From Escherichia phage Dru_SM5, in the sequence record PP920550.1: DNA of 44,061 nucleotides, one strand, 5' to 3'. Below, in pieces: positions 11,288-39,393 of this stretch (its first letter is position 1; each line of letters starts with the position of its first letter). The notes under the pieces are model-generated. The model was not told the DNA's origin. It saw nothing but the letters and a program-made list of their open reading frames with translations, and did no database searches. A program made the position numbers and the translations under genes.

Positions 11288-11601
11288 TTGAGGCGGCGCG
11301 ACGCTTTTATGGCCCGCCGCCACCCTCCGAAGATTTAGCCGCAAGTTTATGGGGTGCGGCCCCCGAAGATGTTTGTCCGCCTGTTGCGCTATGGCCCGAC
11401 AACGCGAAGGTAGTCGCAGTCTTCACAGATTGCTCCACGCAATGGCGCACCGGTTTTGGTGGCGCATACGGCATCGACTACGGCGTGCTGGAGTGGTTAT
11501 TTAAGATGCACGGTATCGAAAACGAGCAGCGCGCGTTTAAAGATATCAAGCTAATGGAGCGAATCGCGCTTGATGAGATGGCGCAGCAGAACCCCGCATA
11601 A
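10925..11601 (+). CDS. tail assembly chaperone -1 frameshift product (gpGT-like)
   Basis: The -1 frame after the slippery site stays open for 106 codons to TAA at 11599-11601 (checked codon by codon). A GGCGGCG...CGCCGCC stem begins 7 nt downstream of the heptamer. Confidence 0.55.
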
Positions 11602-11616
11602 TGAAGCGGGGCAGGC

Positions 11617-11637
11617 GGGACGTCCCGTTTTGTCCCG
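11617..11637 (+). terminator. terminator-like hairpin 1 (GGGACGTCCC palindrome + GTTTT)
   Basis: GCGGGACGTCCCG followed by TTTTGTCCCGCC, just after the frameshift-product stop. Confidence 0.4.
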
Positions 11638-11693
11638 CCTCTGTAAAACTGCATATCTACTCACTTCCACTGCATAAACTCAAAACGGGACAA

Positions 11694-11714
11694 GCGGGAC
11701 GTCCCGTTTTGTCA
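11694..11714 (+). terminator. terminator-like hairpin 2 (second copy of GGGACGTCCC + GTTTT)
   Basis: Near-identical GCGGGACGTCCCGTTTTGTC. Part of a roughly 76 bp tandem repeat with hairpin 1. Confidence 0.4.
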
Positions 11715-11734
11715 CGCCCTGTAAATATGCATAC

Positions 11735-11923
11735 CTATGCAGATTTCGTGCATAAACCAAACGGGACAGAAAGCGGGACAAACACGAGGCGGGACAAAAC
11801 GGGACAGCACCCCGTCCCCGCCAGTGCTGCCGCGGTTTTCAGCCGATCGGGACAGCGGGACAGCACCCCAGTCTTTCAGACTAGACGGGGGTCAATGGCC
11901 CCCCCTCGTCTGAGACTGAATAA
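11735..11923 (+). repeat. GGGACA-iteron + GC-hairpin element, copy A
   Basis: About 189 bp with TATGCAG..TGCATAAA, four CGGGACA iterons (11762-11808), two more (11849-11862), then conserved GTCTTTCAGACTAGACGGGGGTCAATGGCCCCCCCTCGTCTGAGACTGAATAA. Roughly 85% identical by eye to copy B. Confidence 0.8.
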
Positions 11924-11987
11924 GGTTTGTTTTGAAATCGCTGATACAATATCCATCGGCAACTGCATAAAAAAAGGGGACTGCATA

Positions 11988-14630
11988 ATGGCAGATCAGG
12001 CAGCAGGCATCACGCTAAAGGCTGATGTTGCACAAATCAGAACGGCAAATACTGTGCTGGACTCCTTCGCACAGAAATCCGAGAACACAGAAAACAAGGT
12101 TAAGAAATTAAACGACACCCTCGGCAAATCCAAAAAGGTGACGAGTGACGCCGCGGGCGGAATGGAAAAGCTGGCAAACGAATCGCAGCGCGCCGCCGAT
12201 GGCATGACGAAACAGGAGCGACTCGCCAACAGGTTAGGCATGTCTACTAAAAACCTGGGCTTTGCCTCGCGTAACGCCGCATTCCAGTTACAGGATATCG
12301 CAGTTACGCTTGAGATGGGTATGCCGGTACACCGCGTTATGCTTCAGCAGTTACCGCAGCTAACTGGGGCGTTCGGTGGATTGGGTAACACTCTGCGTTA
12401 TGTTGCTGGCTTCCTCGGTCCAGTAGGTATCGGCCTTGCCGCCGTAACGGCAACGTTAGGCGTAGGGGTGGCAATTACGTCCCGCGCAGAGAACCAGGTC
12501 GCAGCGCTTAACAAGACGCTGGCGCTGTCAGGTAACATTTCCGGCCTGACGGCAAACCAGATCCTGGTGCTATCCGAGAACGCCGAGCGCATGGGCGGGT
12601 CGTTCCGCAAGACGCGTGACACAATCCAGGCGCTGGCGGCGGCGGGTGTGAAAGCGGGTGGTGACTTCGGCGCACTGGCGAAGGTAGTGAATGACTTCGC
12701 GAAGGTGTCCAGCCAGCCGATCGAGGATGTGGTCGCGGCGGTGGCGAAGCTATCTACTGACCCAGTAGGTGGCTTGCGAGCATTGGCTGATAAGTATCAC
12801 GTCGTAAACGAAGCGCAGATCCAGCAGGTGCAGTCACTAGTGACGGCGGGTCGCGAAACCGAAGCGGTGGCGCTGGCTAACAAAACAGCCGCCGCGTCGT
12901 TTACCACTATGACCAATGAGATCAAGTCCAACATGGGTACGCTTGAGCGGTCGATGAACGTCGTTACATCGGCAGCTAAATCTATGTGGGATGCTATCCT
13001 GGATGTTGGACGCGCGCAGTCCTCGAATGAGTCCGAGATGAAAGCGCGTGAGTCATTGCAGCGGCTGACAACGGCTTACTATGCCGAGATGAAAGCGGTA
13101 AACGCTGCCGGTGGGGTGATGACCGAAGCGCAGAAAGCGCGTATTAACATGCTTTACAGCGAACTGGTAGCCCAGGAAAAAGTAGTGGCGTCGCTCACCC
13201 TGCGTAACCGTGCTGAGCGAGACAACGCCCGCGCCGCAGACGAATCCGCAAAGGCGAACGAGGAGGCCAACCGCACTGCCCGTGACCGCGCCGCGTTCGA
13301 GAAGGAATACGCCACCAACGCTAAGAAGCGCGCCGACGAGATCGCCCGCCTCAATTTGCTGAATAAGCGCGGCGTTATTGATGAGAAAGAACTAGCCGAG
13401 GCGGTGAAGCAGGTAAACGAGCGTTACAAAGACCCCGCCCCGAAAAAGGCCGCGGCTGTTCGCGTGGATGCCGGTATGAAAATGCTGGAAGTCGCACGGA
13501 GCGAACTGGCCCAGCTTCGAGAATCCGGCAAGCAGATCGAAGCCAACGCGTCTACGCAGACCCGCACGCAACGCGCTCAAGCGGCCTTAAACAAGCTGAT
13601 CGCCGACAATGAGCAGTTAATCGCTGCGAGCAAAGAAAGAGCGCTAACGGCAGCAGAAAAGCAGCAATTAGTCGAGTTCGGGCGCGTGAAGGAAGTCCGC
13701 GAGCAGATCGTCGAAGAAGCCAAATTGCTGGATGCGAAAGAGCAGCAGGTTAAGGCGCACGCGCAGATCGATGCCTTCGTTAAGAACCAGAACGCCGAAC
13801 TAAAAGCCACCGCCGCGGGGTATGCGCTTTCCACTCGCGAAGCGGCAAACCTGCGCGAAGAATTGCAGCTAATTGACCGCCTGAAGCGGGTGGGCGCTAA
13901 CGATACCGATATTGATCTGGCGGTGTCTAAGCTGCGCGAAGTGCAGGAAGCACAGACCGGTGCTAACGCCTCGCTATGGGATGGCTTCAGCCGCGGGCTT
14001 AAGGATAGCGTGGATGATATGGGTAACGGCTATACGCAGATGGCGTCACTCACAAAATTCACGTTCGGCGCTATGCAGGACACGATGAACGAGTTTTTCG
14101 AGACTGGCAAGCTGAACGCAAAGGATATGGTTAAGTCCATTCTGAGCGAATTAATCAAGCTGGCTACATCGCAGGCGTTCAAGTCCATCGTTAGCGCTTT
14201 CGGTGGCGACGGCGGCAAAAACGGATTGTTCGGCGCTATCTTCTCCGGCCTCACTAAGAATGCGGACGGCGGAGCGTACGCAGGGGGCAATCTCGCGGCC
14301 TATTCGGGGCAGGTGGTAAGCCAGCCAACCTTTTTCAGTTATGGCGTCCAGGCGTTCGCTAAGGGCGCAGGATTGATGGGCGAGGCTGGTCCAGAGGCCA
14401 TCATGCCGCTGAAGCGCGGGCCGGACGGGAAACTGGGCGTTGCCGCGTCTGGCGCAGGCGGTGGTATGGTCGTGACGACTAACGTTTACACGGGGACCGG
14501 TAAAACGGATACCAGTGTCAGCGGGCCGGATCCCCGTACCGCGCAGGCGTTCGGCAAGCAAATCACCGAGGCGGTGAAGGCCGAGATCGTGAAGGCGACG
14601 AAACCGGGTGGTGTACTTTACAAACGATGA
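11988..14630 (+). CDS. tail tape measure protein
   Basis: ATG at 11988 follows an AAAGGGGA RBS. 880 aa, coiled-coil-rich. The track extension back to 11601 covers repeat-rich intergenic DNA and is rejected. Confidence 0.85.
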   Translation: MADQAAGITLKADVAQIRTANTVLDSFAQKSENTENKVKKLNDTLGKSKKVTSDAAGGMEKLANESQRAADGMTKQERLANRLGMSTKNLGFASRNAAFQLQDIAVTLEMGMPVHRVMLQQLPQLTGAFGGLGNTLRYVAGFLGPVGIGLAAVTATLGVGVAITSRAENQVAALNKTLALSGNISGLTANQILVLSENAERMGGSFRKTRDTIQALAAAGVKAGGDFGALAKVVNDFAKVSSQPIEDVVAAVAKLSTDPVGGLRALADKYHVVNEAQIQQVQSLVTAGRETEAVALANKTAAASFTTMTNEIKSNMGTLERSMNVVTSAAKSMWDAILDVGRAQSSNESEMKARESLQRLTTAYYAEMKAVNAAGGVMTEAQKARINMLYSELVAQEKVVASLTLRNRAERDNARAADESAKANEEANRTARDRAAFEKEYATNAKKRADEIARLNLLNKRGVIDEKELAEAVKQVNERYKDPAPKKAAAVRVDAGMKMLEVARSELAQLRESGKQIEANASTQTRTQRAQAALNKLIADNEQLIAASKERALTAAEKQQLVEFGRVKEVREQIVEEAKLLDAKEQQVKAHAQIDAFVKNQNAELKATAAGYALSTREAANLREELQLIDRLKRVGANDTDIDLAVSKLREVQEAQTGANASLWDGFSRGLKDSVDDMGNGYTQMASLTKFTFGAMQDTMNEFFETGKLNAKDMVKSILSELIKLATSQAFKSIVSAFGGDGGKNGLFGAIFSGLTKNADGGAYAGGNLAAYSGQVVSQPTFFSYGVQAFAKGAGLMGEAGPEAIMPLKRGPDGKLGVAASGAGGGMVVTTNVYTGTGKTDTSVSGPDPRTAQAFGKQITEAVKAEIVKATKPGGVLYKR

Positions 14631-23488: not shown

Positions 23489-23511
23489 GGGGCCACACGG
23501 CCCCTTTTTTT
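23489..23511. terminator. bidirectional terminator
   Basis: GGGGCC-acac-GGCCCC hairpin followed by TTTTTTT, between convergent genes. Confidence 0.55.
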
Positions 23512-24085
23512 AGTTTGAGTTTTCCCAGTCCATTTTGCGCCGCACCAGCGGGCTTTCGTAATATTCCTTGCCTTCCACTTCCACTAAGGGCCAATCATTA
23601 ACAATCACGTATGGCTCTGCGATATCTTCAATAACGCCGTGCGCGCTTTGTGGTCCCAACGACACGCCCACCAGGATAACACCGGCAACTCGACGGGTAA
23701 GATACTCGCGAGCGCAACGTGCCTCAACCAGTCCGCGACGGATGCCGCTGGTGGCTTTAACCTCGTAGGTCCAGACGGCATCGATCACATGCTCGCGGAA
23801 GTCGGGACCGGACTTAACCTTGCGCTTGCCGACCATGATAATATCGCCGCGGTCGATAGTGTTAGCGCTAAACAGGCCGGTACGCATTAGCAAACCTTGT
23901 GGAATACAGCTACGCCCGCCCGACTGCCCTTCGAGGTACATGCCTGCAAACATCTCGCCCAGCACACCGACAAGACGGCTTTGCTTGCACGCGTCAGACT
24001 TGTATCTCCACTGGTCAAACTCGATGCTTGCTATCATTGCCGCAAGGTGGAATTGTTTACCGGATATTTCATATTCGCCGTACAT
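23510..24085 (-). CDS. hypothetical protein, possible PD-(D/E)xK-type nuclease
   Basis: 191 aa with RBS GAGGACC. Contains GPDF...13 aa...EVK, fitting a PD-x(n)-ExK spacing. Assignment is motif-only and weak. Confidence 0.35.
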   Translation of the reverse strand: MYGEYEISGKQFHLAAMIASIEFDQWRYKSDACKQSRLVGVLGEMFAGMYLEGQSGGRSCIPQGLLMRTGLFSANTIDRGDIIMVGKRKVKSGPDFREHVIDAVWTYEVKATSGIRRGLVEARCAREYLTRRVAGVILVGVSLGPQSAHGVIEDIAEPYVIVNDWPLVEVEGKEYYESPLVRRKMDWENSN

Positions 24086-24127
24086 CGTGTGGTCCTCATT
24101 GATGCGGGCTTCGGCCCGCGATTAGAA

Positions 24128-24682
24128 TTATTTCAGTGCGCTACGTACCAGTGTTTTTTCCATGTTGCGGAAGTCTTCCGGCGTCATGAGGATTTTGGAC
24201 CCATCCTCTCCAGTGAGCACGACCATAGGCTGGACGTCCTGGGCCGCTACGCCGAAATTGGCGGCTTTGACAGTCTTCCCGAACGAGGCCACCACACCTT
24301 CGGAAACGCGCATTGCACTGTTATACGCATTAATCTCGCCATCTAGTCGTACGGACAGGTCTTTGAGGCTGTCGAATTGTGCTGCCGTTGTGTCGATCTG
24401 GATCTCGTCATGCACGGTCATGTACGACTCGCCCAGCAGGGCGGAATAGGCTACCAGGTCAACGATGTTATCGTCCTGGTGCTTACGGTGCTGGCGTACC
24501 AGCTTCAGGCAGACCAGGAAGGTCCAGGCTTCTTGCTCGGTCAGGTCGCGCCCGGTAAGCGCGTTAAACACGTCAGCGATTTGTTTAGCGCTGCGTTCTT
24601 CTTTCGCGTTGTCATAGCCGTTTTCTTTTCCGCGCTGTTCCATAGTGGTGGCGGCGTTTTTGCAGTATTCGTATGCTTTCAT
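24128..24682 (-). CDS. hypothetical protein
   Basis: 184 aa with RBS AAGGACC. No recognisable motif. Confidence 0.6.
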   Translation of the reverse strand: MKAYEYCKNAATTMEQRGKENGYDNAKEERSAKQIADVFNALTGRDLTEQEAWTFLVCLKLVRQHRKHQDDNIVDLVAYSALLGESYMTVHDEIQIDTTAAQFDSLKDLSVRLDGEINAYNSAMRVSEGVVASFGKTVKAANFGVAAQDVQPMVVLTGEDGSKILMTPEDFRNMEKTLVRSALK

Positions 24683-24727
24683 TATGTGGTCCTTATTAGC
24701 GCGGGGCCATATTGCCCCGACGCGTTA

Positions 24728-24757
24728 ACTATAGTGCAACCAACCTATTGGTTGCAA
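24728..24757 (-). promoter_or_regulatory. candidate promoter embedded in a 9-bp-arm inverted repeat
   Basis: On the minus strand: TTGCAA, 18 nt spacer, TATAGT. Spacer overlaps the inverted repeat TGCAACCAA-ccta-TTGGTTGCA (24735-24756). About 45 nt upstream of the 24682 start. Confidence 0.35.
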
Positions 24758-25215
24758 GTAAATTTTGCAACGTTTATTGCGTAAATTTTCGGGACTAAAT
24801 CGCCGCACGCCCGACGAATGGCCGCGATGTTCTTCGGACCGTCTTCAATGATGACCAGTTCCGATACGTCCGCATAGCAGACCATTTTGAATACAGCGCA
24901 CGCCTTAAACTCTGGCGGCGGGGTGTCGTCCAGCATGTGGCGCATAAACAACCGGCCGTTCGGGAATACTTTCAGTTGCTCGGCGGTGGTGTCCCAGCAT
25001 TCTCGCTGCCGGTTTGTCAGATACGCGATCTCGAAGCCTTGCTCTTTATACATGCGCAGTAGCGGCAGCATATCCATGTTCAGGTCTTCGCGAACGTGCG
25101 CTTTGTGCCACTTCGCCCAAAAGGTGGATTTCGTTTTTATGCCGGGCACCAGGTCAGCACGCGCATCGCTTGATCCATTAATAACGCCATCCAAATCGCA
25201 AATCAGTAGTTTCAT
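24745..25215 (-). CDS. HAD-superfamily phosphatase-like protein
   Basis: N-terminal MKLLICDLDGV (HAD motif I DxDG), a downstream Thr/Ser motif, and EDGP near the C-terminus. 156 aa. Confidence 0.55.
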   Translation of the reverse strand: MKLLICDLDGVINGSSDARADLVPGIKTKSTFWAKWHKAHVREDLNMDMLPLLRMYKEQGFEIAYLTNRQRECWDTTAEQLKVFPNGRLFMRHMLDDTPPPEFKACAVFKMVCYADVSELVIIEDGPKNIAAIRRACGDLVPKIYAINVAKFTCNQ

Positions 25216-25445
25216 TTTAAGCTCTCAATAAGTGTCTGTCGGGCGCTTCGCGCAGTAAAGGAGTTGCATACGAAATGGCAACGCCGAGTTATGACAAGCC
25301 AACCGGTGAGGTCAAGGCCCATGATGCGTCCGGGATGGGACGCGCGCACCACATGATTGCGGCGTGGGTCGATGCAGAAGTCTTTTTGCATTTGGTCTAC
25401 TACCGCGGGGTCGCGGTCAACGATTAAGATATTCATGTAGCTCAC
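25212..25445 (-). CDS. hypothetical protein
   Basis: 77 aa ORF, overlaps neighbours by a few nt on both sides. Confidence 0.4.
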   Translation of the reverse strand: MSYMNILIVDRDPAVVDQMQKDFCIDPRRNHVVRASHPGRIMGLDLTGWLVITRRCHFVCNSFTARSARQTLIESLK

Positions 25446-25902
25446 TCTCGCTCATTATTTCAATTTGTGCGCTGCCGCATGGCGGCGCTTCGTCAAATAT
25501 TATCAATTGCTGGCACTTGTTATTGCTCGGCCCGACTTCACCGGTTACAGCATGTATGAATCGGATCCGCCAGTCCAGAAGAATTATCAGGTTTGCAGTC
25601 TTCCTGGCCAGCTTCGCCCACTTCGTCGACGTGTCCTGATTCAGCAGCATGACAGTCCGTCGACCGTGCGCTGCGCATTCCACCCACGGCAGCGGATCGG
25701 AATACGGCGGATTGCACCACTTCCACCCTTTCAACTCTGACCAGTCCACATCAAGCGCGCTGTGCTCTGCCGTGAAGTAACGCGGTAGCAGATGGTTGGC
25801 GTCGCTTGCCGCCATATCGTAACGGAATCGGAACTTACGGCGCAGCGGTTTAAATAAAGCTGGCGGCGTGCGCCAGCTATCTTTCTGCTCACTCTTCTGC
25901 AT
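25417..25902 (-). CDS. DNA N6-adenine methyltransferase (phage Dam-like)
   Basis: Catalytic NPPY motif (WKWCNPPYSD). Size about 160 aa, typical of phage orphan N6-adenine methyltransferases. Confidence 0.75.
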   Translation of the reverse strand: MQKSEQKDSWRTPPALFKPLRRKFRFRYDMAASDANHLLPRYFTAEHSALDVDWSELKGWKWCNPPYSDPLPWVECAAHGRRTVMLLNQDTSTKWAKLARKTANLIILLDWRIRFIHAVTGEVGPSNNKCQQLIIFDEAPPCGSAQIEIMSESELHEYLNR

Positions 25903-26347
25903 AGTCTGGATCTATCGCATACAGGGCGGTTTTCTTTCCGCCGGATAGCACGCGTTGGACTCTGGACATCTCCTCCTTACTGAGCGGTCGGCTATCGGAA
26001 TAGTAGCTGCCGTTTGCACGCCACGCTATATGCACCAGTCCTTTCCACGGGATCGAAGACTGGCGACCTTTGGGGCGCACGTACGCCTCGGCCCGTTTGC
26101 AATGCTCGCGCAAACCTTCGGCTGTGAGTCGATTTAGTGCGACGGTGGTTGTGTATCCGGTGCGCTGCATAATACACATCAACTCATACAGCAGATCGAA
26201 GCGCTCCTCTAATTCCTTTCGCGCCTTCTCCTCGCCTTCATAGCTCGCCAGATAGGTGTCTGCCAGCGCGCTAACACGTTTGACCTGTTCGCGGGCTTCG
26301 AGGCATTGCGCGGCCCAGTAATTTTTCTCTTCTTGTAAAATCTTCAT
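25889..26347 (-). CDS. hypothetical protein
   Basis: 152 aa ORF overlapping the Dam start by 14 nt. Confidence 0.5.
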   Translation of the reverse strand: MKILQEEKNYWAAQCLEAREQVKRVSALADTYLASYEGEEKARKELEERFDLLYELMCIMQRTGYTTTVALNRLTAEGLREHCKRAEAYVRPKGRQSSIPWKGLVHIAWRANGSYYSDSRPLSKEEMSRVQRVLSGGKKTALYAIDPDYAEE

Positions 26348-26590
26348 TTATTTAATCTCCGTAGTGCGGATTTCCTTGCGCGGAATAAATTTGCCGTCTT
26401 TCTCGACCCAGCAAGTTCCGAAACGCCATTGGGTATTACGGCCTGTTTGCTCGGCATATACGGTCTTGCATTCGTAGCGTTCCGTATAGTAAGTAGCCGC
26501 GGTAGGTACGAAAATACAAACGGCAAACATGAGGGTGAGTATCACCCAAAATCGAAGGTCGCCGTCGTAGTCGAAAAATAATGATCTCAT
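26348..26590 (-). CDS. small membrane protein
   Basis: 80 aa with one predicted TM helix (FWVILTLMFAVCIFVP). RBS GGAGA. Preceded on the minus strand by a terminator hairpin. Confidence 0.5.
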   Translation of the reverse strand: MRSLFFDYDGDLRFWVILTLMFAVCIFVPTAATYYTERYECKTVYAEQTGRNTQWRFGTCWVEKDGKFIPRKEIRTTEIK

Positions 26591-26608
26591 CGTGTTGTCT
26601 CCAGGTAT

Positions 26609-26636
26609 TAAAAAGGGCGTCCAAACCGGACACCCT
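26609..26636 (-). terminator. minus-strand intrinsic terminator / attenuator
   Basis: Minus strand: GGGTGTCC-ggtttg-GACGCCC followed by TTTTT, immediately upstream of the RBS of the 26590 gene. Confidence 0.45.
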
Positions 26637-26671
26637 TAATGTAATGCAACCAATCTAATTATGCAACCAAT

Positions 26672-26989
26672 TTACGCATAAAAGTTTGGGTCGCGTGCAA
26701 CGTCTACCAGGTAAAGGTTGCTTATGCGGTTGCCGTAGTGCCCTGGAGTGCGCTGGCGGCACACAACGGCGAAGCCTGGGGGGATTGTATTGCCCGTCTC
26801 AATAATCCACGCCACGCGTGCACCAGACAGCGTCTTGCCGTTGCATTCGATACGTGTTCCGCCGTCGGCAGTATTGATGTTGCCGATCTTGCAGCCGGTG
26901 GACTTCAGACGGATGACTCCGGTTTTGCTGTCGTAGGTGAATAGCTGGTTAGTCATTGCAACCGAAAAGTCGATGGCTTCGAATGTCAT
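26672..26989 (-). CDS. hypothetical protein (possibly degenerate HNH/NUMOD-like)
   Basis: 105 aa. The G-x-x-IECNGK...ARVAWIIETG pattern loosely recalls phage HNH_3-type proteins but lacks the catalytic His. Function uncertain. Confidence 0.4.
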   Translation of the reverse strand: MTFEAIDFSVAMTNQLFTYDSKTGVIRLKSTGCKIGNINTADGGTRIECNGKTLSGARVAWIIETGNTIPPGFAVVCRQRTPGHYGNRISNLYLVDVARDPNFYA

Positions 26990-26990
26990 T

Positions 26991-28619
26991 TTAAATTTTC
27001 CTCGTTTTCTTAGCTTTCATGTATTCCATCAAGTCGTCCTGAATATCTCGCTTACTGTCTCGACGCTCGGCGACCAGTTCGTCCAGTGTACCGCGCGCCT
27101 GGATAATGTAGACGAATACCGGACGGGGGTGTCCTGCTTGCATCTGGCGAACCGGCCCGATACGTTCAACGATCTGCGAAAAGTGCTCAAAGTTCCAGGT
27201 ATCGGAGAAGATTGCCAGGTGGTGACCGCCGTCCTGCAAGTTAAGGCCGTGGCCGGCCGATGCCGGGTGTGCAAACATGATGGGTATCTCGCCCCTGTTC
27301 CACGCTTCCATATCCTTATTCCCCTGCTTACCTTTGCCCAACGCAACGCCGTGCGGAAATTTCTTCTTGAGACGCGCCAGGTCATGCTTGTACTGGTACG
27401 CAACGAGCAACGGGGCGCCGTTCAACTCCTCTACGATACTTTCCAGCGCGTCCAGCTTGGCGTCGTGGATCTTCACCCACTCGTCGGTCCGTTCGCCGTC
27501 TTCGTCGACTTTATACACGGCCCCGGAAGCAAGCTGAAGGCACTTAATAGTCTTCGAAGCAGCGTTCGCCGCCTCCACAGTTCCGCTTTCCAGTTCGGCA
27601 AATAGCTCCGCTTCGAACTGGTCATAAATCTTGCGGGCTTTCTTCGGCAGGTCCACAACAACAGGCGTATAGATTGGCTTGTCGCATCCGAAGTATTCAG
27701 CCGCGTCAACGGTGAGGGATACATCAGACAGGCGTTGTTGTATTTCTTTCTCGGAGTTCTTTAGCGGAGCGTGCTGCATCGTGAAGCTGCCGGGGTTAAC
27801 CGGCTTGCTAATGAACCAGCGATCGGTGAATGCCTTATAGCTACTGCCGAGACGCTCGCCACCGTCGACAAACCACGTCTGACCCCATAAGTCTTTTAAG
27901 CCATTAGGCGCGGGTGTGCCGGTCAGGTTAATCCAGCGCTTGACGTGCTTATGTGCAACCGCTGCCAGTGCGCGGGCGCGCTTACTCCCCTGCTTACTTC
28001 GATAGCCTTTCAGCTTAGGCGCGGGTGTGCCGGTCAGGTTAATCCAGCGCTTGACGTGCTTATGTGCAACCGCTGCCAGTGCGCGGGCGCGCTTACTCCC
28101 CTGCTTACTTCGATAGCCTTTCAGCTTAGTGGATTCATCGGCAACAACGACCGTAAAGGGCCACGCATCGCCGTAATAGTCAACCAGCCACTCAACCACA
28201 TCATAGTTAACACAAACCACGTTAGCGTCGCTCTCCAACGCGGCTATGCGGTCTTTCTCCGGCCCAGTGCCGTCTACGACCAGGAGGGATGAGAACCGCC
28301 ATTTCTCCTGCTCCGGGGGCCATGTACCTGACGCAACACGCAGCGGGGCCAGCACCAGTACGCGGTCGTCATGATGGGATAGGACGCCAGTCTGGAACAT
28401 TTTATTCAGCGCCCACATTGTCGCGCCGGTTTTACCGGATCCCATTGTCGCCCAGATATTACATCGCTTATGCTTGAGGATGAACGCGGTTATCAACTTC
28501 TGATATTCGCGGCGTCGGAATCGTGCCATATCTTTATTCCGCCTTTTTCCAGACTTCGGTTTCACTGTTCCAGTTCCTTTTTGTGGCGTCGTAGTTGGTG
28601 GCGTGTCCGATGTGGACAC
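26991..28619 (-). CDS. SNF2/DEAD-like superfamily 2 helicase
   Basis: Motif I WATMGSGKT, motif II VADEST, motif III LTGTPAP (duplicated by a 111 bp tandem repeat), plus C-terminal helicase motifs. Alternative start at 28529. Confidence 0.75.
   Translation of the reverse strand: MSTSDTPPTTTPQKGTGTVKPKSGKRRNKDMARFRRREYQKLITAFILKHKRCNIWATMGSGKTGATMWALNKMFQTGVLSHHDDRVLVLAPLRVASGTWPPEQEKWRFSSLLVVDGTGPEKDRIAALESDANVVCVNYDVVEWLVDYYGDAWPFTVVVADESTKLKGYRSKQGSKRARALAAVAHKHVKRWINLTGTPAPKLKGYRSKQGSKRARALAAVAHKHVKRWINLTGTPAPNGLKDLWGQTWFVDGGERLGSSYKAFTDRWFISKPVNPGSFTMQHAPLKNSEKEIQQRLSDVSLTVDAAEYFGCDKPIYTPVVVDLPKKARKIYDQFEAELFAELESGTVEAANAASKTIKCLQLASGAVYKVDEDGERTDEWVKIHDAKLDALESIVEELNGAPLLVAYQYKHDLARLKKKFPHGVALGKGKQGNKDMEAWNRGEIPIMFAHPASAGHGLNLQDGGHHLAIFSDTWNFEHFSQIVERIGPVRQMQAGHPRPVFVYIIQARGTLDELVAERRDSKRDIQDDLMEYMKAKKTRKI
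27904..28129. repeat. perfect 111-bp tandem duplication inside helicase gene
   Basis: Two identical 111 bp units (period verified 27904 to 28015). Encodes KLKGYRSKQGSKRARALAAVAHKHVKRWINLTGTPAP twice, in frame. Confidence 0.85.
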
Positions 28620-28634
28620 CAGTAGCCGTATTAA

Positions 28635-28820
28635 TTATTTTTGTTCCGCACGGTAGCGGCGCTGCCGTTCTCGTTCTGCCTTGTTACGGCACGACTTACA
28701 CTGCGCGCGATACCCGTCCGGGCTACGTGCTGTTTTGCCAGTGTACTTATGAAATTGCGATAGCGGTTTAACACAGCCGCATTGGCTGCAACGTTTTTCT
28801 TCAATCATTTTAACCCTCAT
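28635..28820 (-). CDS. small zinc-ribbon protein
   Basis: 61 aa with CSQCGC...CKSCRNK (two CxxC pairs) and a basic C-terminus. Confidence 0.45.
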   Translation of the reverse strand: MRVKMIEEKRCSQCGCVKPLSQFHKYTGKTARSPDGYRAQCKSCRNKAERERQRRYRAEQK

Positions 28821-29748
28821 TAATAAATGCTTTTATAAATTCAGCCGCTACTTGTGGAACGATGGCATTGCCGTAACCGCGCAGTCGTCCCACTCTGGCG
28901 GGTATCCCATTAGCCAGCGGGAATGTGCCGGATTCAACTGGCCTGAACTTCCCATCGCGGCATCCAAGCCAGTCAGCATCTGACCAGAAGCCGTTATGCG
29001 GATCGGATGTGCTATCCTCAGACCTTGCTCCGTCGAATAATCCAGGCGGTCGAATGTTCTGTCTTTCCCGTCTTTCCTTATCACTGTCCCCCCGCTTCCC
29101 TTGAAATCGTTCGCCGTCGGTGCGGCCCAGCTTGTCAGCACCGCGACGTCCTGCAAATTTTGCTGCCGTCCTGCTTCCTTGCGTTTTATTACTTTCTCCC
29201 AATCCGTGTAACCGTTCACCGTCCCGTTTTGCGCGCAAGGACTCGGCCAGGTTGTAAGCCCCGAAGAAAAGTCTGTCCCGTTTGTGCGGTGCGCCGACGC
29301 TACAAGCTGGGAGTACGGCAAACCCGACGGCGTAGTCTTCTCTTTCCAGGTGAGCTTGTAAATCACACATCCACGATTTTGCAATTGCTGGCGCAACCTG
29401 CTCCCCAAAGATGATTGTAGGGCGGCACTCGCTGACGAGGCGGAGGAACGTCGGCGCAAGGTGTCTTGGGTCGAACTGTCCAAGCTGACGTCCTGCCGTG
29501 CTAAACGGCTGGCACGGCGGGCTTCCCGTCCAGAGGCGCGTGCTTTCCGAAACGCCCGCAAGTCGGAGCGCGAGAGGCCAGCCGCCAATACCAGCGAAAA
29601 AATGACACTGCGTGAATCCGTCGAGGTCTTCGGGTTGCACATCCTCAATACTCCTTTCATCTACTATGCCATACGGGATATGGCCTTGTTTTATTAGCTC
29701 ACGCAGCCATGCTGCCGCGTGTTTGTCCCATTCGTTGTAATAGTTCAT
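28810..29748 (-). CDS. DNA cytosine-5 methyltransferase
   Basis: Motif I FAGIGG, motif IV GSPPCQPFS (catalytic PC), an ENV-like FGEQV, and motif X GYGNAIVP. Holds a charged low-complexity insert (K/R/G/D-rich) in the variable region. Confidence 0.75.
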   Translation of the reverse strand: MNYYNEWDKHAAAWLRELIKQGHIPYGIVDERSIEDVQPEDLDGFTQCHFFAGIGGWPLALRLAGVSESTRLWTGSPPCQPFSTAGRQLGQFDPRHLAPTFLRLVSECRPTIIFGEQVAPAIAKSWMCDLQAHLEREDYAVGFAVLPACSVGAPHKRDRLFFGAYNLAESLRAKRDGERLHGLGESNKTQGSRTAAKFAGRRGADKLGRTDGERFQGKRGDSDKERRERQNIRPPGLFDGARSEDSTSDPHNGFWSDADWLGCRDGKFRPVESGTFPLANGIPARVGRLRGYGNAIVPQVAAEFIKAFINEG

Positions 29749-29785
29749 AGTTTGCCTCTTTTGTGGCTACCGGCACACTATACCG

Positions 29786-30064
29786 CTATGCGACCAATTC
29801 AGCAACCAATAAATCGCAGTCGGCTATGTTGTCAATAACGCGAACGTCAGCACCGCGGCGGACCATTCGATCGTGTTCTCGTACCTGGTGCGGCTTCGGT
29901 TTTCCACCGGGGCGCTTCACTTCGACGAATACAACTCTGCCGTTTATGATAATAATCAGGTCGGGCGCACCTGAGCGCCCCTCCCATGCCAGTTTTCGGC
30001 AGAATCCACCAACCTCTTTCACCCGTTTCATCAGGTGATTCTGCACCTTGCCTTCGGGAGTCAT
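29786..30064 (-). CDS. VRR-NUC domain nuclease
   Basis: 92 aa with PDLIIIINGRVVFVEVKRPGGKPKPHQ, a PD-(D/E)xK core typical of VRR-NUC. Confidence 0.65.
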   Translation of the reverse strand: MTPEGKVQNHLMKRVKEVGGFCRKLAWEGRSGAPDLIIIINGRVVFVEVKRPGGKPKPHQVREHDRMVRRGADVRVIDNIADCDLLVAELVA

Positions 30065-30068
30065 AATC

Positions 30069-32360: not shown

Positions 32361-32527
32361 TGCTTTATCCTCACTACGGCGTCAGCGCTGCCGATCATGG
32401 AGAAGATGCCGTCGGACAGGGCGATCTCTTCTCCATTGTTGCGAATCTCGGCAACTGTGAAATACTCGCCCAGCAATTTGGACCATACCTGCATTCCGAC
32501 TTTTACTTCGCTGGCTTTAATACGCAT
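32357..32527 (-). CDS. small hypothetical ORF translationally coupled to DNA polymerase
   Basis: 55 aa ORF (MRIKASEVKVGMQVWSKLLGEYF...) whose TGA stop overlaps the polymerase ATG (ATGA). Below the track size cut-off; weak RBS. Confidence 0.3.
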   Translation of the reverse strand: MRIKASEVKVGMQVWSKLLGEYFTVAEIRNNGEEIALSDGIFSMIGSADAVVRIKQ

Positions 32528-32541
32528 TTTTCATTGTCCTA

Positions 32542-32567
32542 TTAAAAAGCCCGCATTAAGCGGGCTT
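32542..32567 (-). terminator. minus-strand intrinsic terminator
   Basis: Minus strand: AGCCCGC-ttaat-GCGGGCT followed by TTTTT, after the SSB-like gene. Confidence 0.5.
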
Positions 32568-32585
32568 GAATAGTGGGCTTTGCCC

Positions 32586-35502: not shown

Positions 35503-35513
35503 TGTCTCGTCCT

Positions 35514-35543: not shown

Positions 35544-35550
35544 GAATACA

Positions 35551-36806: not shown

Positions 36807-39071
36807 ATGAGCTTAATTAAATTCGCTGTAACACGACCCGCTAAAAAAGGCGAAAAAGCCAGGGCGGAAAACTTCCAGATGACTACCGAAGAGTTTTTCG
36901 AATTTATCAATGACGCGAAAGAAATCTCCTCGGTGCATATTAACAAAACGGAAGATAAAGCGGAGTATGCACGCCGCAAGCGTAAGGCCGATGGCATTGT
37001 GGCTTATACCAGTGACGGCTTACGTCGCAAGACCAGTGCGGTGGACCGCTCGATCCTGTTCTTCGATATCGACCGTACTGACACCCGCACCCTGCGCCGC
37101 TGCCGTAAGGCGTTCATCGACGCGGGACTGGAACATGTATTTCACACCACTACCGGCGACCGCCACCCGCTGAAAGGGGGCACGCGTTGCGCTCGTTTCC
37201 TGGTGCTCACCGATAAGCCTGTACCGGCTGAAGACCTGGGCCGCGTCCAGTATGCACTATTACACCAACTGGGTCTGTCAGATGTGGACTTCGACGATTG
37301 CACGAAAGACACAAACCGCCTGATGTACCTGCCACACCAGCAGTCTGTTATTAAGTGCCACTACGGCAAGCGTGCCCGCGTCCGTCGTCTGCTTCGCCTG
37401 GCTGATAAGCTGGGAATGGAAAAAGAGGAAGTACGACGCGAACTGACCCAGGGCGATGACGGCGTGGCGGACGGTATTCTGGATTGGTGCTTCCAGGCAG
37501 GATTCGAACCGCTGTCGTCCGGTCGTGGTTATGAAGTGCCATGCCCGAACGAACACCTGCACAGTGGTGAAGGGTCCACCGCTATCATGGTTAAGGATGG
37601 CGAGATCCGTTTCAAGTGTATGCACACCGGCAACGAGTGTTGCTCGGAACTGAACAGACACCAGCACCTGGCGCTACGTCTTATCGGGATCCCGGACCAC
37701 CTGAACGTCGAACCGCACAACATGTCACGTAAGCAAATCGCCGCCATCCTCCCAGGTCTGGACGACGAGGAAGTGGAATCGTGCTATGAACATATCGTTG
37801 ATGCGGTCGGAGACGGCGACGAGTACGGCGTGTGTACTGATGCAGACCTGGACAACGAGCCGGTCGCACTGTTCAGTAAGCACGACCCGATCATCGAAGG
37901 CCTGGTCAACTTCAAATCGACCTGGTATCTCGCCGGTGAGTCGAACATTGGCAAGTCGTTCTACGTGCTGGGCCAGATGGCGTCAGTATCTGCCGGTATT
38001 CCGTTCGGCGGTGCGAAGGTCGTCCAGTCTCATTGCTTCTATTTCGATGCGGAAGGTGGTGAGGCCCCCAACCAGCGTAAAGAAGCATTGCAGATTAAAT
38101 ACGAGCACGACCTGGACAAGCTGCACATTATAGACCTGCAGTCACGCGGCTGGGATATCACCAGCAAATCAGGCTTGCGCGAAGTTATCAGCTTTATCAA
38201 CCGCACCGCTAACGGCGAACCGGTTGGCCTGGTGGCGTTCGACTCACTCAACCAGACTGTTGCGTTGCGGTCCGCTGATGCTAAACCGTTCGACGAGAAC
38301 AACGCCAGCGATATGGGTGAAGTGGTCAAAGCGCTGAAGGCCATCGCGGAAAATACAGGTGGCAGTGCGGGCGTCATCCACCACCCGGCTAAAGGTGCAA
38401 ACGGCAGCAGAACCCCCCGAGGGTCCGGCGCGCTGCATGGTGCTGTCGATTCTGCGTTCTTCCTGGAACAGCCGGACGACAACCAGCCCGGACAATTGAA
38501 CCTGTATCATGAGAAGTCACGTAACGGCATCAAGCAAGCGCCGCGCGGCTTCGTCCTGCTCAAGTGCAAGGTGAAGGTGGATCTCCGCAAGTCAGAAGCG
38601 TTCGAGGCGCACCAGTCCACCAGCACCGGGCCAGACTTCGGCGACGTGGTTGCCGGATGGGACGTCAAGCCGATTGCCTCCACGCCACGCGACGAGACTC
38701 TCTACCTCGTACCGGTTGCCCTGGCACCGTTCGCTATTGAACAGGCGAAGGCCTCGGGCAAAGCAGCAGTTAAAGAAGAGAACACCGCCGGACCGCGCAA
38801 CGAAAAAGAGAAAGTGCTTTATGCGGCACTGGAAAAACTGATGGAAGATAACCCGGACCATACTGGATTCAGTAAATCGGCAATTGTCCGCCAGGCTGGG
38901 CTGGCAAAAGGTGGCACTTCGACGAAGGCAATCGACGATATGGTGGAGCGAGGAGTGATAGGTTTTTACACCGATCCGCACACTGGGGCCATCTATGGGT
39001 CGTCTAATTTGGTCATCAAATCGGATATCCCTATCACGCTTTCAGCGACCGATGACGACTTAAAAGATTAA
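36807..39071 (+). CDS. DNA primase/helicase (primase-polymerase-like N-terminus + P-loop ATPase)
   Basis: N-terminal FFDIDRTD (AEP/prim-pol-like DxD), a Cys/His zinc-binding segment, Walker A GESNIGKS and Walker B LVAFDSLNQ. 754 aa. Confidence 0.6.
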   Translation: MSLIKFAVTRPAKKGEKARAENFQMTTEEFFEFINDAKEISSVHINKTEDKAEYARRKRKADGIVAYTSDGLRRKTSAVDRSILFFDIDRTDTRTLRRCRKAFIDAGLEHVFHTTTGDRHPLKGGTRCARFLVLTDKPVPAEDLGRVQYALLHQLGLSDVDFDDCTKDTNRLMYLPHQQSVIKCHYGKRARVRRLLRLADKLGMEKEEVRRELTQGDDGVADGILDWCFQAGFEPLSSGRGYEVPCPNEHLHSGEGSTAIMVKDGEIRFKCMHTGNECCSELNRHQHLALRLIGIPDHLNVEPHNMSRKQIAAILPGLDDEEVESCYEHIVDAVGDGDEYGVCTDADLDNEPVALFSKHDPIIEGLVNFKSTWYLAGESNIGKSFYVLGQMASVSAGIPFGGAKVVQSHCFYFDAEGGEAPNQRKEALQIKYEHDLDKLHIIDLQSRGWDITSKSGLREVISFINRTANGEPVGLVAFDSLNQTVALRSADAKPFDENNASDMGEVVKALKAIAENTGGSAGVIHHPAKGANGSRTPRGSGALHGAVDSAFFLEQPDDNQPGQLNLYHEKSRNGIKQAPRGFVLLKCKVKVDLRKSEAFEAHQSTSTGPDFGDVVAGWDVKPIASTPRDETLYLVPVALAPFAIEQAKASGKAAVKEENTAGPRNEKEKVLYAALEKLMEDNPDHTGFSKSAIVRQAGLAKGGTSTKAIDDMVERGVIGFYTDPHTGAIYGSSNLVIKSDIPITLSATDDDLKD

Positions 39072-39182
39072 ATTCTGCGCGCATTGGTTGCCGATATGGG
39101 AATTCCCATATCGCTAAACGATTAATTTGTGCGCGTATTGGTTGCCATTTTGCGTGTTTTTATCTGGTCGTATTGGTTGCCG
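39066..39182 (+). repeat. direct repeats flanking a perfect 22-bp palindrome (origin- or operator-like)
   Basis: 27 bp direct repeats at 39066-39092 and 39120-39146 (GATTAAATTCTGCGCGCATTGGTTGCC and a near copy), a partial third at 39170-39182, and the perfect palindrome CGATATGGGAATTCCCATATCG at 39092-39113. Confidence 0.7.
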
Positions 39183-39206
39183 TGTAGTGTAAATATAATG
39201 AATAGT

Positions 39207-39393
39207 TATGCAGTTTTATTGCATAAAGTAAGCGGGACAGAAAGCGGGACAAACAAGAGGCGGGACAAAGCGGGACAGCACCCCCGTCCCGCCCCGGATG
39301 ACGCGGCCTGGCGAGGAGCGGGACAGGCGGGACAAACCCAAGTCTTTCAGACTAGACGGGGGTCCATGGCCCCCCTCGTCTGAGACTGAATAA
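39207..39393 (+). repeat. GGGACA-iteron + GC-hairpin element, copy B
   Basis: About 187 bp paralog of 11735-11923: TATGCAG..TGCATAAA, four CGGGACA iterons, two more, then a near-identical conserved hairpin block. A TATAAT box at 39195-39200 sits just upstream. Confidence 0.8.

Follow-up and report, generated by a model that had tools for sequence, protein, structure and literature searches.

The window considered here is the whole stretch of 44,061 nt analysed from Escherichia phage Dru_SM5 (PP920550.1), an E. coli Dhillonvirus. A gap of 387 bp, as reported in the initial annotation, is found inside its tail operon, between the TAA that ends the tail-chaperone product (11599-11601) and the ATG that opens the tape-measure gene (11988). 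This gap holds the first copy of a repeat-rich element (copy A), and a second one (copy B) is located just 3' of a helicase-primase gene (Table 1). Comparison of the two copies by self-BLAST and pairwise alignment confirmed that they have the same order of parts, with a common module of about 205 nt (11720-11923 and 39188-39393, 82.7% identity, E 5.8e-54) that starts in copy A at the second AT-rich unit. Both copies are oriented as the flanking + strand genes, and no further copy was found in the window (self-BLAST); searches of E. coli genomes and of plasmids gave no match either.

The heptamer CGGGACA occurs 17 times in the window for 6.3 +/- 2.2 expected, a count reached in 0 of 100 shuffles, and 14 of these sites fall inside the two copies. 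The GGGAC/GTCCC cores number 13 in the repeat region of copy A and 7 in copy B, the region being non-coding; a 14th GGGAC of the copy A gap lies within the tape-measure ribosome-binding site. GC skew is uninformative as an origin marker because it follows gene orientation: it tracks the direction of transcription, turns near 23.5 and 36 kb, and marks neither copy.

The duplication itself is already known from GenBank, where the record of the congeneric Sodalis phage SO-1 (NC_013600) flags the same two loci as "region A" and "region B", described as direct, inverted and palindromic repeats that are similar to each other. This record is an annotation note only, which contains neither the link to the helicase-primase nor comparative evidence or experiment, and a literature search returned no paper on the SO-1 regions A/B, on Dhillonvirus intergenic repeats or on GGGACA iterons.

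Table 1. Features of copies A and B and of the adjoining genes (positions in the window)
Feature	Position	Strand	Description
Copy A	11601-11987		Gap between tail chaperone and tape-measure genes
Left iteron cluster 1	11604..11639		Degenerate GGGGCA, head-to-head GGGAC-GTCCC (11617-11626), inverted GTCCC (11632)
AT-rich unit 1	11641..11685	+	64% AT; TGCATA-N15-TGCATA at 11650-11676
Left iteron cluster 2	11683..11718		GGGACA, GGGAC-GTCCC, degenerate GTCAC; second unit of the 79-bp tandem repeat
AT-rich unit 2	11719..11761	+	65% AT; TGCATA-N15-TGCATA at 11728-11754
Direct CGGGACA x4	11762..11818	+	11762, 11774, 11790, 11800, then inverted GTCCC at 11814
Spacer	11819..11847	+	CGCCAGTGCTGCCGCGGTTTTCAGCCGAT
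Direct CGGGACA x2	11848..11862	+	11848, 11856; 8 nt apart (8 or 9 nt elsewhere)
Hairpin block, copy A	11869..11923	+	Ends in ACTGAATAA
Tape-measure leader	11924..11987	+	Copy A only; TGATACAAT at 11942-11950; ACTGCATAA at 11962 and 11980; RBS AAGGGGA
HTH protein	36467-36796		109 aa; sigma-70 region 4 / HTH_23 fold
Helicase-primase gene	36807..39071	+	754 aa; AAA_25 (RepA-like) core at residues 357-531; variable C-terminal domain
Promoter-like site	39172..39199	+	ATTGGTTGC at 39172-39180, TATAAT at 39194-39199; directly 5' of copy B
Copy B	about 39186-39393	+	Just 3' of the helicase-primase gene
AT-rich unit, copy B	39186..39232	+	77% AT; TGAATA-N15-TGCATA at 39199-39225
Direct CGGGACA x4	39233..39290	+	39233, 39245, 39261, 39271, then inverted GTCCC at 39286
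Direct CGGGACA x2	39319..39334	+	
Hairpin block, copy B	39340..39393	+	Ends in ACTGAATAA

The left part of copy A is a tandem repeat with a period of 79 and 2.1 copies (11607-11768, 81% matches, Tandem Repeats Finder), the units being 78% identical over 100 nt in self-BLAST; tandem units had been correctly recognised in the initial annotation, with a size of about 76 bp that is corrected here. The "terminator-like" GCGGGACGTCCCGTTTT hairpin with which each unit was said to begin is actually a head-to-head iteron pair: intrinsic terminators opening the 79-bp units were rejected, as none was called on the + strand between 11300 and 12200 in a terminator scan and the T-run is unconserved, TTTT being changed to GATCT or GACCC in other genomes. 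The pattern of the first cluster, GGGACA-N3-GGGAC-GTCCC-N5-GTCCC, is kept across 15 genomes. The four direct iterons that follow (spacing 12, 16 and 10) and the two more located downstream are as originally described; the four direct ones are invariant, and the second and third are separated by a spacer of variable sequence whose length differs by +/-1 nt. The spacer CGCCAGTGCTGCCGCGGTTTTCAGCCGAT differs between copies A and B, each version being conserved within its own copy, and has counterparts in phiEap-2, AH01 and St162. In the tape-measure leader, CTGATACAAT is invariant in 15 genomes; the extended -10-like TGATACAAT is also invariant, and its sequence, with TACAAT at 11945, suggests a possible promoter.

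The AT-rich segments (43-47 bp, 64, 65 and 77% AT versus 45% for the genome) each adjoin an iteron cluster, and only 1.8% of 45-nt windows attain 64% AT. All of them contain TGMATA boxes paired at a 21-bp spacing; the arrangement TGMATA-N15-TGMATA was found 3 times in the window for 0.02 expected, each time immediately 5' of an iteron cluster. Host ArgR boxes were also searched in these units and rejected (3 matches for 3.3 expected).

Copy B is devoid of the left-hand iterons found in relatives, and its AT-rich unit includes a local inverted repeat (TTATGCA/TGCATAA) whose centre is flipped in some phages. The promoter-like site was not called by the promoter scan because its -35 is atypical; 14 of the 16 B copies retain its TATAAT or have TATAGT instead, the two without it being divergent copies, and it has no counterpart at the matching position in copy A.

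The terminal block can indeed form a stable hairpin, as had been proposed: it folds as DNA with a z-score of -2.9, equalled by 0 of 200 shuffles, and the whole common module is also more stably folded than shuffled sequence (z = -2.96). Two pairing options were obtained for the block of copy A, namely CAGTCT/AGACTG with CAGAC/GTCTG and G5 (11887-11891)/C7 (11899-11905), or two local hairpins. Stems are invariant within the genus, and among 28 hairpin variants the G/C stem is kept and the loop is variable. Equivalents are present in phiEap-2, AH01 and St162, those of other lineages being palindromic on both strands; hairpins of the wider family are palindromic almost throughout and are lengthened by inverted iterons, so that they can be folded equally on either strand. 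In the metagenomic hairpins, the arms are offset by 1-2 nt. The large hairpin is followed by GAATAA, with no U-run directly after it. The structured ncRNA listed among the candidate roles is unsupported, as the Rfam search across the window gave no match at gathering scores and, up to an E-value of 10, chance-level miRNA matches only.

Homologous elements are present in related phages: copies A and B were both found in 158 of 158 Dhillonvirus records, divergent lineages included, and the module recurs in other lineages. Within the genus, 75% of the columns are invariant in iteron cores versus 42% in the remaining columns, and spacers vary in sequence and length. The two copies have common alleles at 40 of 83 polymorphic columns, their likeness being slightly higher inside one genome than across genomes (p = 0.01). 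A canonical terminator occurs immediately 3' of the chaperone gene in one divergent Dhillonvirus lineage.

The initial statement that no conserved ORF spans both copies needs to be qualified, as an open frame of the same register does cross each of them here, namely the tape-measure frame open from 11601 and a frame at 39129-39383. It is not conserved: the tape-measure frame is closed 5-34 codons upstream of the ATG in 14 other Dhillonviruses, and its being open here is an accident due to one extra C at 11899-11905. The coding explanation was rejected on the basis of this closure and of the 1-nt indels that are frequent among copies. A target-site duplication left by a mobile element was similarly rejected: GCATAATG is present at both edges of the gap in this window, its left-edge occurrence is unconserved (TAA, TGA or TAG variants without ATG in other genomes), and no additional copies were found in the window, E. 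coli genomes or plasmids.

The protein encoded upstream of copy B belongs to PHROG 3228 ("replicative helicase-primase"), and AAA_25 is the only domain detected in it with Pfam (E = 1e-19, residues 357-531). Its most variable part is formed by the C-terminal ~65 residues. Because a homologue search with the C-terminal 193 aa retrieved only two partial Salmonella proteins, the structure of this domain was modelled on a 3-sequence alignment, which gave a helix-helix-helix-strand-strand arrangement (pLDDT 62-77). The top fold matches of this model are all winged-helix DNA binders, none of them significant (best E = 0.068), and the domain is thus predicted to be a winged helix with moderate model confidence. 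The phages phiEap-2 and AH01 have the same helix RRRxLxxxMAxRGL and the same iteron CGGACA, and Dhillonvirus and St162 each differ; over the 3-4 lineages compared, the putative recognition helix appears to track the iteron. Comparison of the Dhillonvirus domain with the metagenomic "KKAFxRA" C-termini did not establish homology in sequence (hhalign probability 11%). Members of the RepC or RepB' families were not found in Pfam, NCBIfam or PHROGs.

This helicase-primase is considered as the likely iteron binder, judging from sequence comparisons. The two proteins put forward for that role in the initial annotation are less likely: the product at 42832 is a metallophosphoesterase, and the HTH protein at 36467 has no counterpart in St162, fKuEco01 and horsemountain, where its position is occupied by Cro/XRE-type HTH genes. 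St162 keeps the module although this HTH protein is absent at that position.

In other phages, the same layout was found directly 3' of the helicase-primase gene, with an iteron proper to each lineage: a pair of TGMATA boxes in AT-rich DNA, then short direct iterons, one inverted iteron, further iterons and finally a G/C hairpin. In copy B and its relatives, the element is located 0-160 nt past the stop codon of the helicase-primase gene and ends with the conserved hairpin. In St162 (44% identity), 6 of the 7 GGGGAGA sites of the genome lie within about 150 bp past the stop codon, with the same order of parts, GGGGAGA being the iteron of the St162/FSL SP-031 group; the module of phiEap-2 and AH01 is the same, with CGGACA as iteron. 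In Roseobacter phage CRP-831 (26% identity), whose annotation names the homologue "helicase RepA family protein", TTTATACA/TGTATAAA iterons flank an ACCC-TTTA-GGGT hairpin. Viral sequences were also scanned at the DNA level for three closely spaced CGGGACA sites; at least 120 stretches were retrieved, with 110 non-Dhillonvirus stretches among the matches listed, and for 32 of these 110 a helicase-primase homologue was found on the strand of the array, ending -222 to +126 nt from the array start. In these 32 unrelated metagenomic phage contigs, whose iteron is GGGACA, the AAA_25 core is 24-30% identical to that of the window protein. The primase type varies among the metagenomic proteins (Prim-Pol, or Toprim with a zinc ribbon), and the AAA_25 core and the GGGACA array are constant. 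Homologues with no array after the gene were found in K1G, fKuEco01, horsemountain, VLCpiS8c and KYD2. Copy A is absent from St162 and phiEap-2, which have only the copy on the helicase-primase side and no gap before the tape-measure gene. The module adjoins the helicase-primase gene in distant phages, this arrangement being shown by 32 metagenomic contigs and four cultured lineages, and its iteron changes with the protein lineage; the anatomy, conservation and gene linkage of copies A and B are direct observations.

We consider it reasonably probable that copies A and B are DNA-level iteron arrays (core GGGAC) for the phage's own helicase-primase, most likely replication origins. Iteron-type origins and protein-binding arrays, which the initial annotation listed as separate candidate roles, are one explanation here, and the comparative evidence favours it. 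According to the best reading of the comparisons, copy B would occupy the ancestral position, and copy A would be a duplicate specific to Dhillonviruses and enlarged by two additional units, each made of an iteron palindrome and AT-rich DNA. Binding, unwinding, priming and origin activity we infer as follows. The C-terminal winged-helix domain of the 754-aa protein would recognise CGGGACA, and several molecules would assemble on the direct and inverted iterons around an AT-rich segment of about 45 bp with its TGMATA boxes. This segment would be opened by the RepA-like ATPase ring; the G/C-rich hairpin block, once single-stranded, would signal loading or priming to the primase part, and the primer would be extended by the phage DNA polymerase. 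Copy A, inserted between the chaperone and tape-measure genes, would either be a second origin or enhance replication in cis. More speculatively, these elements might represent a large, undescribed class of phage origins, in which a fused primase, RepA-like helicase and winged helix would act on lineage-specific iterons and a G/C hairpin located after its own gene, GGGACA being the commonest iteron in metagenomes. Dhillonviruses alone would then have placed a second, fuller copy in the tail operon, either coupling replication to late transcription (e.g. if replication restarted the expression of the tape-measure and tail genes) or allowing two-origin replication of the 44-kb genome.

A role of the arrays as operators that set the expression of the downstream operons, bound by the helicase-primase (as roadblock or autoregulator) or by the 36467-36796 HTH protein, is unlikely in our judgement. 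Copy A would in this case lower or time the expression of the tape-measure and distal tail genes and restart transcription from its own promoter. It does separate genes that are required in unequal amounts, with the invariant TGATACAAT after it, copy B is found among six ATTGGTTGC promoter-like motifs, and the initiators of iteron replicons often regulate transcription too; the canonical terminator after the chaperone gene in one divergent lineage and the sigma-70 region 4 / HTH_23 fold of the HTH protein point in the same direction. However, what stays constant beside the module from lineage to lineage is the helicase-primase, a counterpart of the HTH protein is lacking at its position in the three genomes cited above, and the T-runs of the supposed terminators are unconserved. 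Regulation of the tail operon is moreover not the primary role of the module, since relatives have only the helicase-primase-side copy and no gap before the tape-measure gene.

An RNA-level role is conceivable because copy B would be transcribed if its promoter-like site is active and copy A lies inside the + strand tail block. The module would then be a leader of the + strand acting in cis on RNA polymerase or on the message, as an antiterminator like HK022 putL/putR or as a stabilising or processing hairpin, with its GGGACA repeats base-pairing to GUCCC or recruiting an RNA-binding protein. The orientation of both copies along the flanking genes, the start of copy B about 7 nt past the conserved TATAAT, the folding of the module with its kept G/C stem and variable loop, and the T.G pair possible in the + strand stem are consistent with it. 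Nevertheless, Rfam gave no match even at permissive thresholds, copy A is devoid of a promoter at the matching position, and the iterons flank AT-rich DNA in both orientations, which a protein-binding array on RNA does not need; in addition, their sequence differs according to the lineage of the DNA helicase-primase encoded next to them, and the wider-family hairpins fold equally on both strands. This explanation is regarded as quite improbable. Very little probability is given to copy A being neutral or selfish, that is, a small mobile element or a stray origin copy that became fixed in the genus ancestor. Its absence from the related St162 and phiEap-2 and the resemblance of the edge GCATAATG to a target-site duplication would fit such an origin, but copy A is kept in every Dhillonvirus record including divergent lineages, its iterons are more constrained than its spacers, and it retains the full layout (left iterons and AT-rich unit) lost in copy B; the left-edge GCATAATG is unconserved, and other copies are missing from the window, E. 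coli genomes and plasmids.

To our knowledge, a replication origin is yet to be mapped in any Dhillonvirus or relative from the Guernseyvirinae. These groups comprise widespread coliphages and Salmonella phages, which are employed therapeutically and are represented in the BASEL collection. If the arrays are recognised by the helicase-primase, its C-terminal domain, at about residues 660-754, and the 7-nt iteron constitute a testable pairing with natural variants (CGGGACA, CGGACA, GGGGAGA and TTTATACA). A RepA-family helicase-primase gene followed directly by iterons, inverted iterons and a small G/C hairpin is suggested as a signature for origin prediction in uncultured phages. Carried on a plasmid, a copy of the element might protect cells by titrating the initiator, following the principle of "phage-encoded resistance" known from dairy phages. 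The second copy in the tail operon is unusual and could illustrate the movement or duplication of origins in compact phage genomes.

Several known systems combine elements of this layout. At the oriV of the IncQ plasmid RSF1010, RepC binds the iterons, RepA is the helicase, and the ssiA/ssiB hairpins are used by the RepB' primase (PMC8567376, PMC4234260). Short direct iterons, an AT-rich region, hairpin signals and a RepA-family (AAA_25) helicase, which is hexameric in RSF1010, are common to RSF1010 and to the module of the window. The series of steps proposed above for the window follows that of RSF1010, and P4 alpha and pRN1 ORF904 operate by the same logic. However, the activities of three separate proteins in RSF1010 are apparently fused in one 754-aa protein, the iterons have 20 nt in RSF1010 versus 7 nt in both orientations here, the ssiA/ssiB pair compares with one hairpin block per copy, and RSF1010 is a plasmid whereas the element of the window belongs to a virulent phage and is present twice. 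The module may thus work like an IncQ origin, but it is not a member of this family, because RepC/RepB' matches (Pfam, NCBIfam, PHROGs) and a pair of ssi hairpins on opposite strands were not found. In pRN1 (ORF904) and Bordetella phage BIP-1, the origin lies immediately 3' of a gene combining primase, helicase and winged helix, and its stem-loop is required for replication and functional when moved elsewhere (PMC4234260). Copy B is likewise 3' of the replication gene and ends in a conserved hairpin; pRN1 differs in having no iterons and a superfamily-3 helicase, whereas iterons dominate in the window and the helicase is RepA-like.

In satellite phage P4, short repeats are bound by the C-terminal winged helix of alpha, a multifunctional primase-helicase (PMC4234260). 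Alpha has a primase of the Toprim type and a helicase of superfamily 3 (D5-type), in contrast to the RepA/AAA_25 core of the window protein, and no sequence relationship between the two was found. The same octamer iterons are present at two separate loci of P4, ori and the cis replication region crr, crr itself having two direct repeat units. This arrangement resembles copy B together with copy A and its 79-bp tandem units, and the two are considered as analogous only: the P4 iteron is TGTTCACC versus CGGGACA in the window, and ori and crr are about 4.5 kb apart versus 27 kb between A and B. In the virulent Bacillus siphophage SPP1 (~44 kb), oriL and oriR are distant from each other and carry the same boxes bound by the replisome organiser G38P, one region lying in the replication gene cluster and the other in the late region. 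G38P acts with a separate helicase loader and helicase, and oriL is inside the initiator gene. Although the protein family and the repeats differ, SPP1 is like the window in possessing two distant regions of repeated boxes.

The two repeat regions, copy A in the tail operon and copy B after the helicase-primase gene, are real, non-random and already flagged, and are best explained, judging from sequence, as an origin module of the helicase-primase, built of iterons and a hairpin and present in duplicate. By nucleotide database comparison, the region 11500-12100 was matched in 158 phage records (150 with at least 80% of its length covered), nearly all of them Dhillonviruses of E. coli or Shigella. 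The annotation of the best match, JLBYU60 (99.5% identity), was combined with the ORF list of the window to establish the gene map. Two records named for non-enteric hosts, MG065648.1 (Campylobacter phage A144, 99-100% identity to the window over the region) and OQ221563.1 (Acinetobacter phage NJ01, ~91% over the shared module), seem likely to reflect a mislabelled host or contamination.

Features of the window that bear on copies A and B
Feature	Coordinates	Strand	Basis or remark
Terminase to tail genes	1-23482	+	annotation/ORF list
Stop (TAA) of tail-chaperone frameshift product	11599-11601		left border of copy A gap
Tandem repeat of copy A	11607-11768		Tandem Repeats Finder
Copy A, part 1			iteron palindrome cluster and ~45 bp AT-rich unit, pair present twice
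Copy A, part 2			four direct iterons, one inverted iteron, spacer
Copy A, part 3			two direct iterons, then hairpin block
Copy A, part 4			64-nt leader up to tape-measure gene
Copy A segment aligned to copy B	11720-11923		self-BLAST
C-run	11899-11905		seven C in the window
TGATACAAT	11942-11950		extended -10-like, 3' of copy A
ACTGCATAA, two copies	11962-11970, 11980-11988		second overlaps start codon
Tape-measure ATG	11988		right border of copy A gap
Spurious 1009-aa ORF	11601-14630		fused to tape-measure gene
Replication and recombination genes	23510-36246	-	annotation/ORF list
Divergent region	36247-36466		
Second + block	from 36467	+	109-aa HTH protein, helicase-primase, small genes, lysis genes
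Helicase-primase (754 aa)	36807-39071	+	
Copy B segment aligned to copy A	39188-39393		self-BLAST
Inverted repeat TTATG-CAGTTTTATTG-CATAA	39206-39226		in copy B
ATTGGTTGC, 15 copies	6011, 6025, 22123, 24747, 26646, 26663, 29802, 36270, 39083, 39137, 39172, 39454, 39544, 39575, 40130		

Pairwise alignment upheld the homology of the two copies proposed in the initial annotation (82.7% identity, E 5.8e-54). The heptamer CGGGACA, referred to as the iteron, has an expected count of 6.3 in the window and an actual count of 17, which none of 100 shuffles reached; 14 of the 17 lie inside the two elements. The terminal GC hairpin was likewise borne out as a long G/C-rich fold that beats all 200 shuffles (z = -2.9 as DNA), and the 196-nt module folded as RNA gave z = -2.96. 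The two tandem units described in copy A are present, with a period of 79 bp instead of ~76 bp (2.1 copies, 81% matches). The "terminator-like" label of GCGGGACGTCCCGTTTT was abandoned: this is a head-to-head iteron pair (GGGAC/GTCCC) followed by one more inverted iteron, the T-run after it is not conserved (GATCT or GACCC in other genomes), and the + strand terminator scan was negative. A canonical intrinsic terminator, GGCCGGGTAATTCCGGCCTTTTT, follows the chaperone stop and precedes the first iteron in a divergent Dhillonvirus lineage (locus L024, IMGVR_UViG_3300045988_003101); the window has no terminator of this type after the chaperone stop.

Copy A is the larger and is regularly built; copy B has a single AT-rich unit and all parts from the four direct iterons on, without the left-hand iteron clusters. 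The AT-rich units (64, 65 and 77% AT vs 45% genome-wide) each contain a pair of TGMATA boxes exactly 21 bp apart, a pattern found three times in the window for 0.02 expected, each time immediately 5' of an iteron cluster. In both copies the hairpin block terminates in ACTGAATAA or ACTGCATAA, which resembles these boxes, and ACTGCATAA is present twice before the tape-measure gene.

The module was found twice in essentially every Dhillonvirus record. In that of Sodalis phage SO-1 (GenBank) both loci are annotated, as mutually similar regions A and B with direct, inverted and palindromic repeats; a literature search found no paper discussing them. Variation was compared among 31 distinct copies from 15 genomes. 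Between 11604 and 11870, 75% of iteron-core columns are invariant vs 42% of the others. The spacer of iterons 2-3 shows free sequence variation and length changes of one base, iterons 5-6 are spaced by 8 or 9, and the hairpin retains its G5-6/C5-6 stem with a variable loop (TCAATGG, TCAGCGG, TCTGGCA, GTATCGG, GTATTGT and others). Since alleles are common to A and B at 40 of 83 polymorphic columns, and A-B similarity is slightly higher within than between genomes (0.780 vs 0.765, permutation p = 0.01), sequence is exchanged between the two copies, which are subject to common constraints in their evolution. In many copy-B sequences (L005, L006, L009, L011, L019, L021, L027, L028 and L033 among the compared loci) the centre of the inverted repeat is exactly reverse-complemented (CAATAAAACTG), the outcome that template switching within a hairpin would be expected to give.

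The initial annotation had stated that no conserved ORF spans both copies. A same-register open frame does cross A and B in the window, but this is due to one extra C in a C-run that has five or six C in all other Dhillonviruses examined; this base puts the TGA at GTCTGAGAC out of frame and creates the spurious ORF. The tape-measure frame of 14 other Dhillonviruses is shut 5-34 codons 5' of the ATG, with 3-8 stops in 390 nt, and single-base indels are frequent among module copies. The region is therefore not coding, and a coding role of the copy A gap was ruled out.

The link to the helicase-primase was examined from both sides. On the DNA side, viral contigs were searched for three closely spaced CGGGACA sites, which gave at least 120 stretches (chance expectation, by a rough estimate, a few), those listed being mostly non-Dhillonvirus with a GC content of 35% to 74%. 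A helicase-primase homologue lies on the same strand as the array at 32 of the 110 non-Dhillonvirus loci listed, its frame ending -222 to +126 nt from where the array begins, with 4-52 nt ahead as the most frequent distance. These homologues share 24-30% identity with the window protein in the AAA_25 core (E-values down to 1e-264, with a profile made from the matches themselves); the primase type differs (one Prim-Pol, another Toprim plus zinc ribbon) and the AAA_25 core is the same. Many metagenomic arrays consist of several direct GGGACA, a further GGGACA, a short C-run/T(A/T)(T/A)A/G-run hairpin and TGTCCC-nn-TGTCCC. Such arrays repeatedly contain the small hairpin of CCC-TTTA-GGG type, a candidate for the conserved core of the class.

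The protein-side comparison started from homologues, without any DNA motif. In Salmonella phage St162 (44% identity; FSL SP-031 group, ~30 phages), six of the seven genomic GGGGAGA sites lie within 150 bp 3' of the helicase-primase stop codon, in the same part order as in Dhillonvirus: iterons, an AT-rich pair GAATAG-N15-GAATAG, three iterons, an inverted copy, spacer, iteron, a small hairpin CTCCT/AGGAG and a G/C hairpin. The module is also present in Enterobacter phage phiEap-2 and Pantoea phage AH01, where CGGACA serves as the iteron, with hairpins AGTCT-TAGC/TATC-AGACT and GGGGGTGG...CCACCCTCC, and ends (AGACTGCATAA and AGACTTATGCATAA, respectively) close to those of Dhillonvirus. An AT-rich version is found in Roseobacter phage CRP-831 (L154 3545-3696; AAA_25 core identity 26%), in which TTTATACA/TGTATAAA iterons of either orientation surround an ACCC-TTTA-GGGT hairpin, immediately 3' of a "helicase RepA family" gene. 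No array follows the helicase-primase gene in the homologues of K1G, fKuEco01, horsemountain, VLCpiS8c and KYD2. Linkage from both sides makes the module an old companion of this gene with a lineage-specific iteron, and we regard this comparative evidence as decisive. St162 and phiEap-2 have one module copy only, and their tape-measure gene is not preceded by a gap, so copy A is a Dhillonvirus innovation. In six metagenomic viral contigs (L036, L045, L050, L053, L084, L115), genes for ~250-330 aa proteins with an N-terminal HTH-like segment (...RGQLA.S.RFLAE.W.WSKS.V.RFL..L...) and, after it, ...ITVCNYDKYQ... contain GGGACA repeats in the part that encodes a low-complexity linker, a layout resembling the lambda O arrangement (origin inside the initiator gene); the hexamer may also serve this second initiator architecture.

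The helicase-primase is the likely iteron binder, as suggested by its sequence and a structural model. The four enterobacterial helicase-primases vary most in their C-terminal ~65 residues, and the segment aligning as recognition helix is the same in phiEap-2 and AH01, which share an iteron, and different in Dhillonvirus and in St162. The C-terminal domain, modelled from a 3-sequence alignment, is helix-helix-helix-strand-strand (pLDDT 62-77), and the top-ranking PDB structures are without exception winged-helix DNA binders (MarR family, Fur family, histone H1, CadC), none of them a significant match (best E = 0.068). A profile comparison of metagenomic C-termini ("W..FY...KKAFxRA...L...G.I") with this domain gave a probability of 11%, which does not establish homology. 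The 109-aa HTH protein, proposed earlier as a binder, has a sigma-region-4-like fold but is not a constant partner of the module; its position is taken by Cro/XRE-type HTH genes in St162, fKuEco01 and horsemountain.

We consider it rather probable that A and B are helicase-primase-bound, origin-type elements, because iterons in both orientations surround an AT-rich segment and adjoin a hairpin, directly 3' of a primase-helicase with a predicted C-terminal DNA-binding domain. GC skew tracks gene orientation only. Transcription of both copies would be compatible with this origin reading, as assistance to origin opening, and also with a role at the RNA level: copy A is inside the + strand tail-gene block and copy B starts ~7 nt 3' of a TATAAT (39194) itself preceded by ATTGGTTGC, so that both are probably transcribed if this candidate promoter is active. 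The 9-mer ATTGGTTGC resembles a promoter or operator motif specific to the phage; at least seven copies are non-coding (six in the gap that holds copy B, one in the divergent region), a -10-like hexamer often lies 15-17 nt downstream, and St162 and phiEap-2 have TTGGCTG(C) at matching places.

A regulatory side-effect of copy A on the tail operon is plausible, since the invariant TGATACAAT is a putative promoter element that probably restores tape-measure expression. That copy A is a neutral duplication or a mobile element is unlikely: it is kept universally with selectively conserved iterons, the repeat at the left edge of its gap is not conserved, and no copies were found in E. coli genomes or plasmids. 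Returning to the origin reading, the idea that copy A fires independently, and is not an enhancer or a secondary regulatory effect, is held tentatively, at slightly less than an even chance. This extra copy is worth following, as is the wide extent of the related class among uncultured phages.

Two-locus arrangements are known from P4 (ori/crr) and SPP1 (oriL/oriR), which are precedents for the layout of A and B. The module would be a replication origin served by its own initiator, the multifunctional primase-helicase, uniting iteron logic with stem-loop logic in a single protein and a single site. The closest mechanistic models, by analogy, would be RSF1010, in which RepC acts on iterons, RepA unwinds and the ssiA/ssiB hairpins are recognised by the RepB' primase (PMC4234260, PMC8567376), P4 alpha, whose winged helix binds origin repeats (PMC4234260), and pRN1 ORF904, where a movable stem-loop needed for replication directly adjoins the replication gene on its 3' side; Bordetella phage BIP-1 has a similar stem-loop after its own replication gene (PMC4234260).
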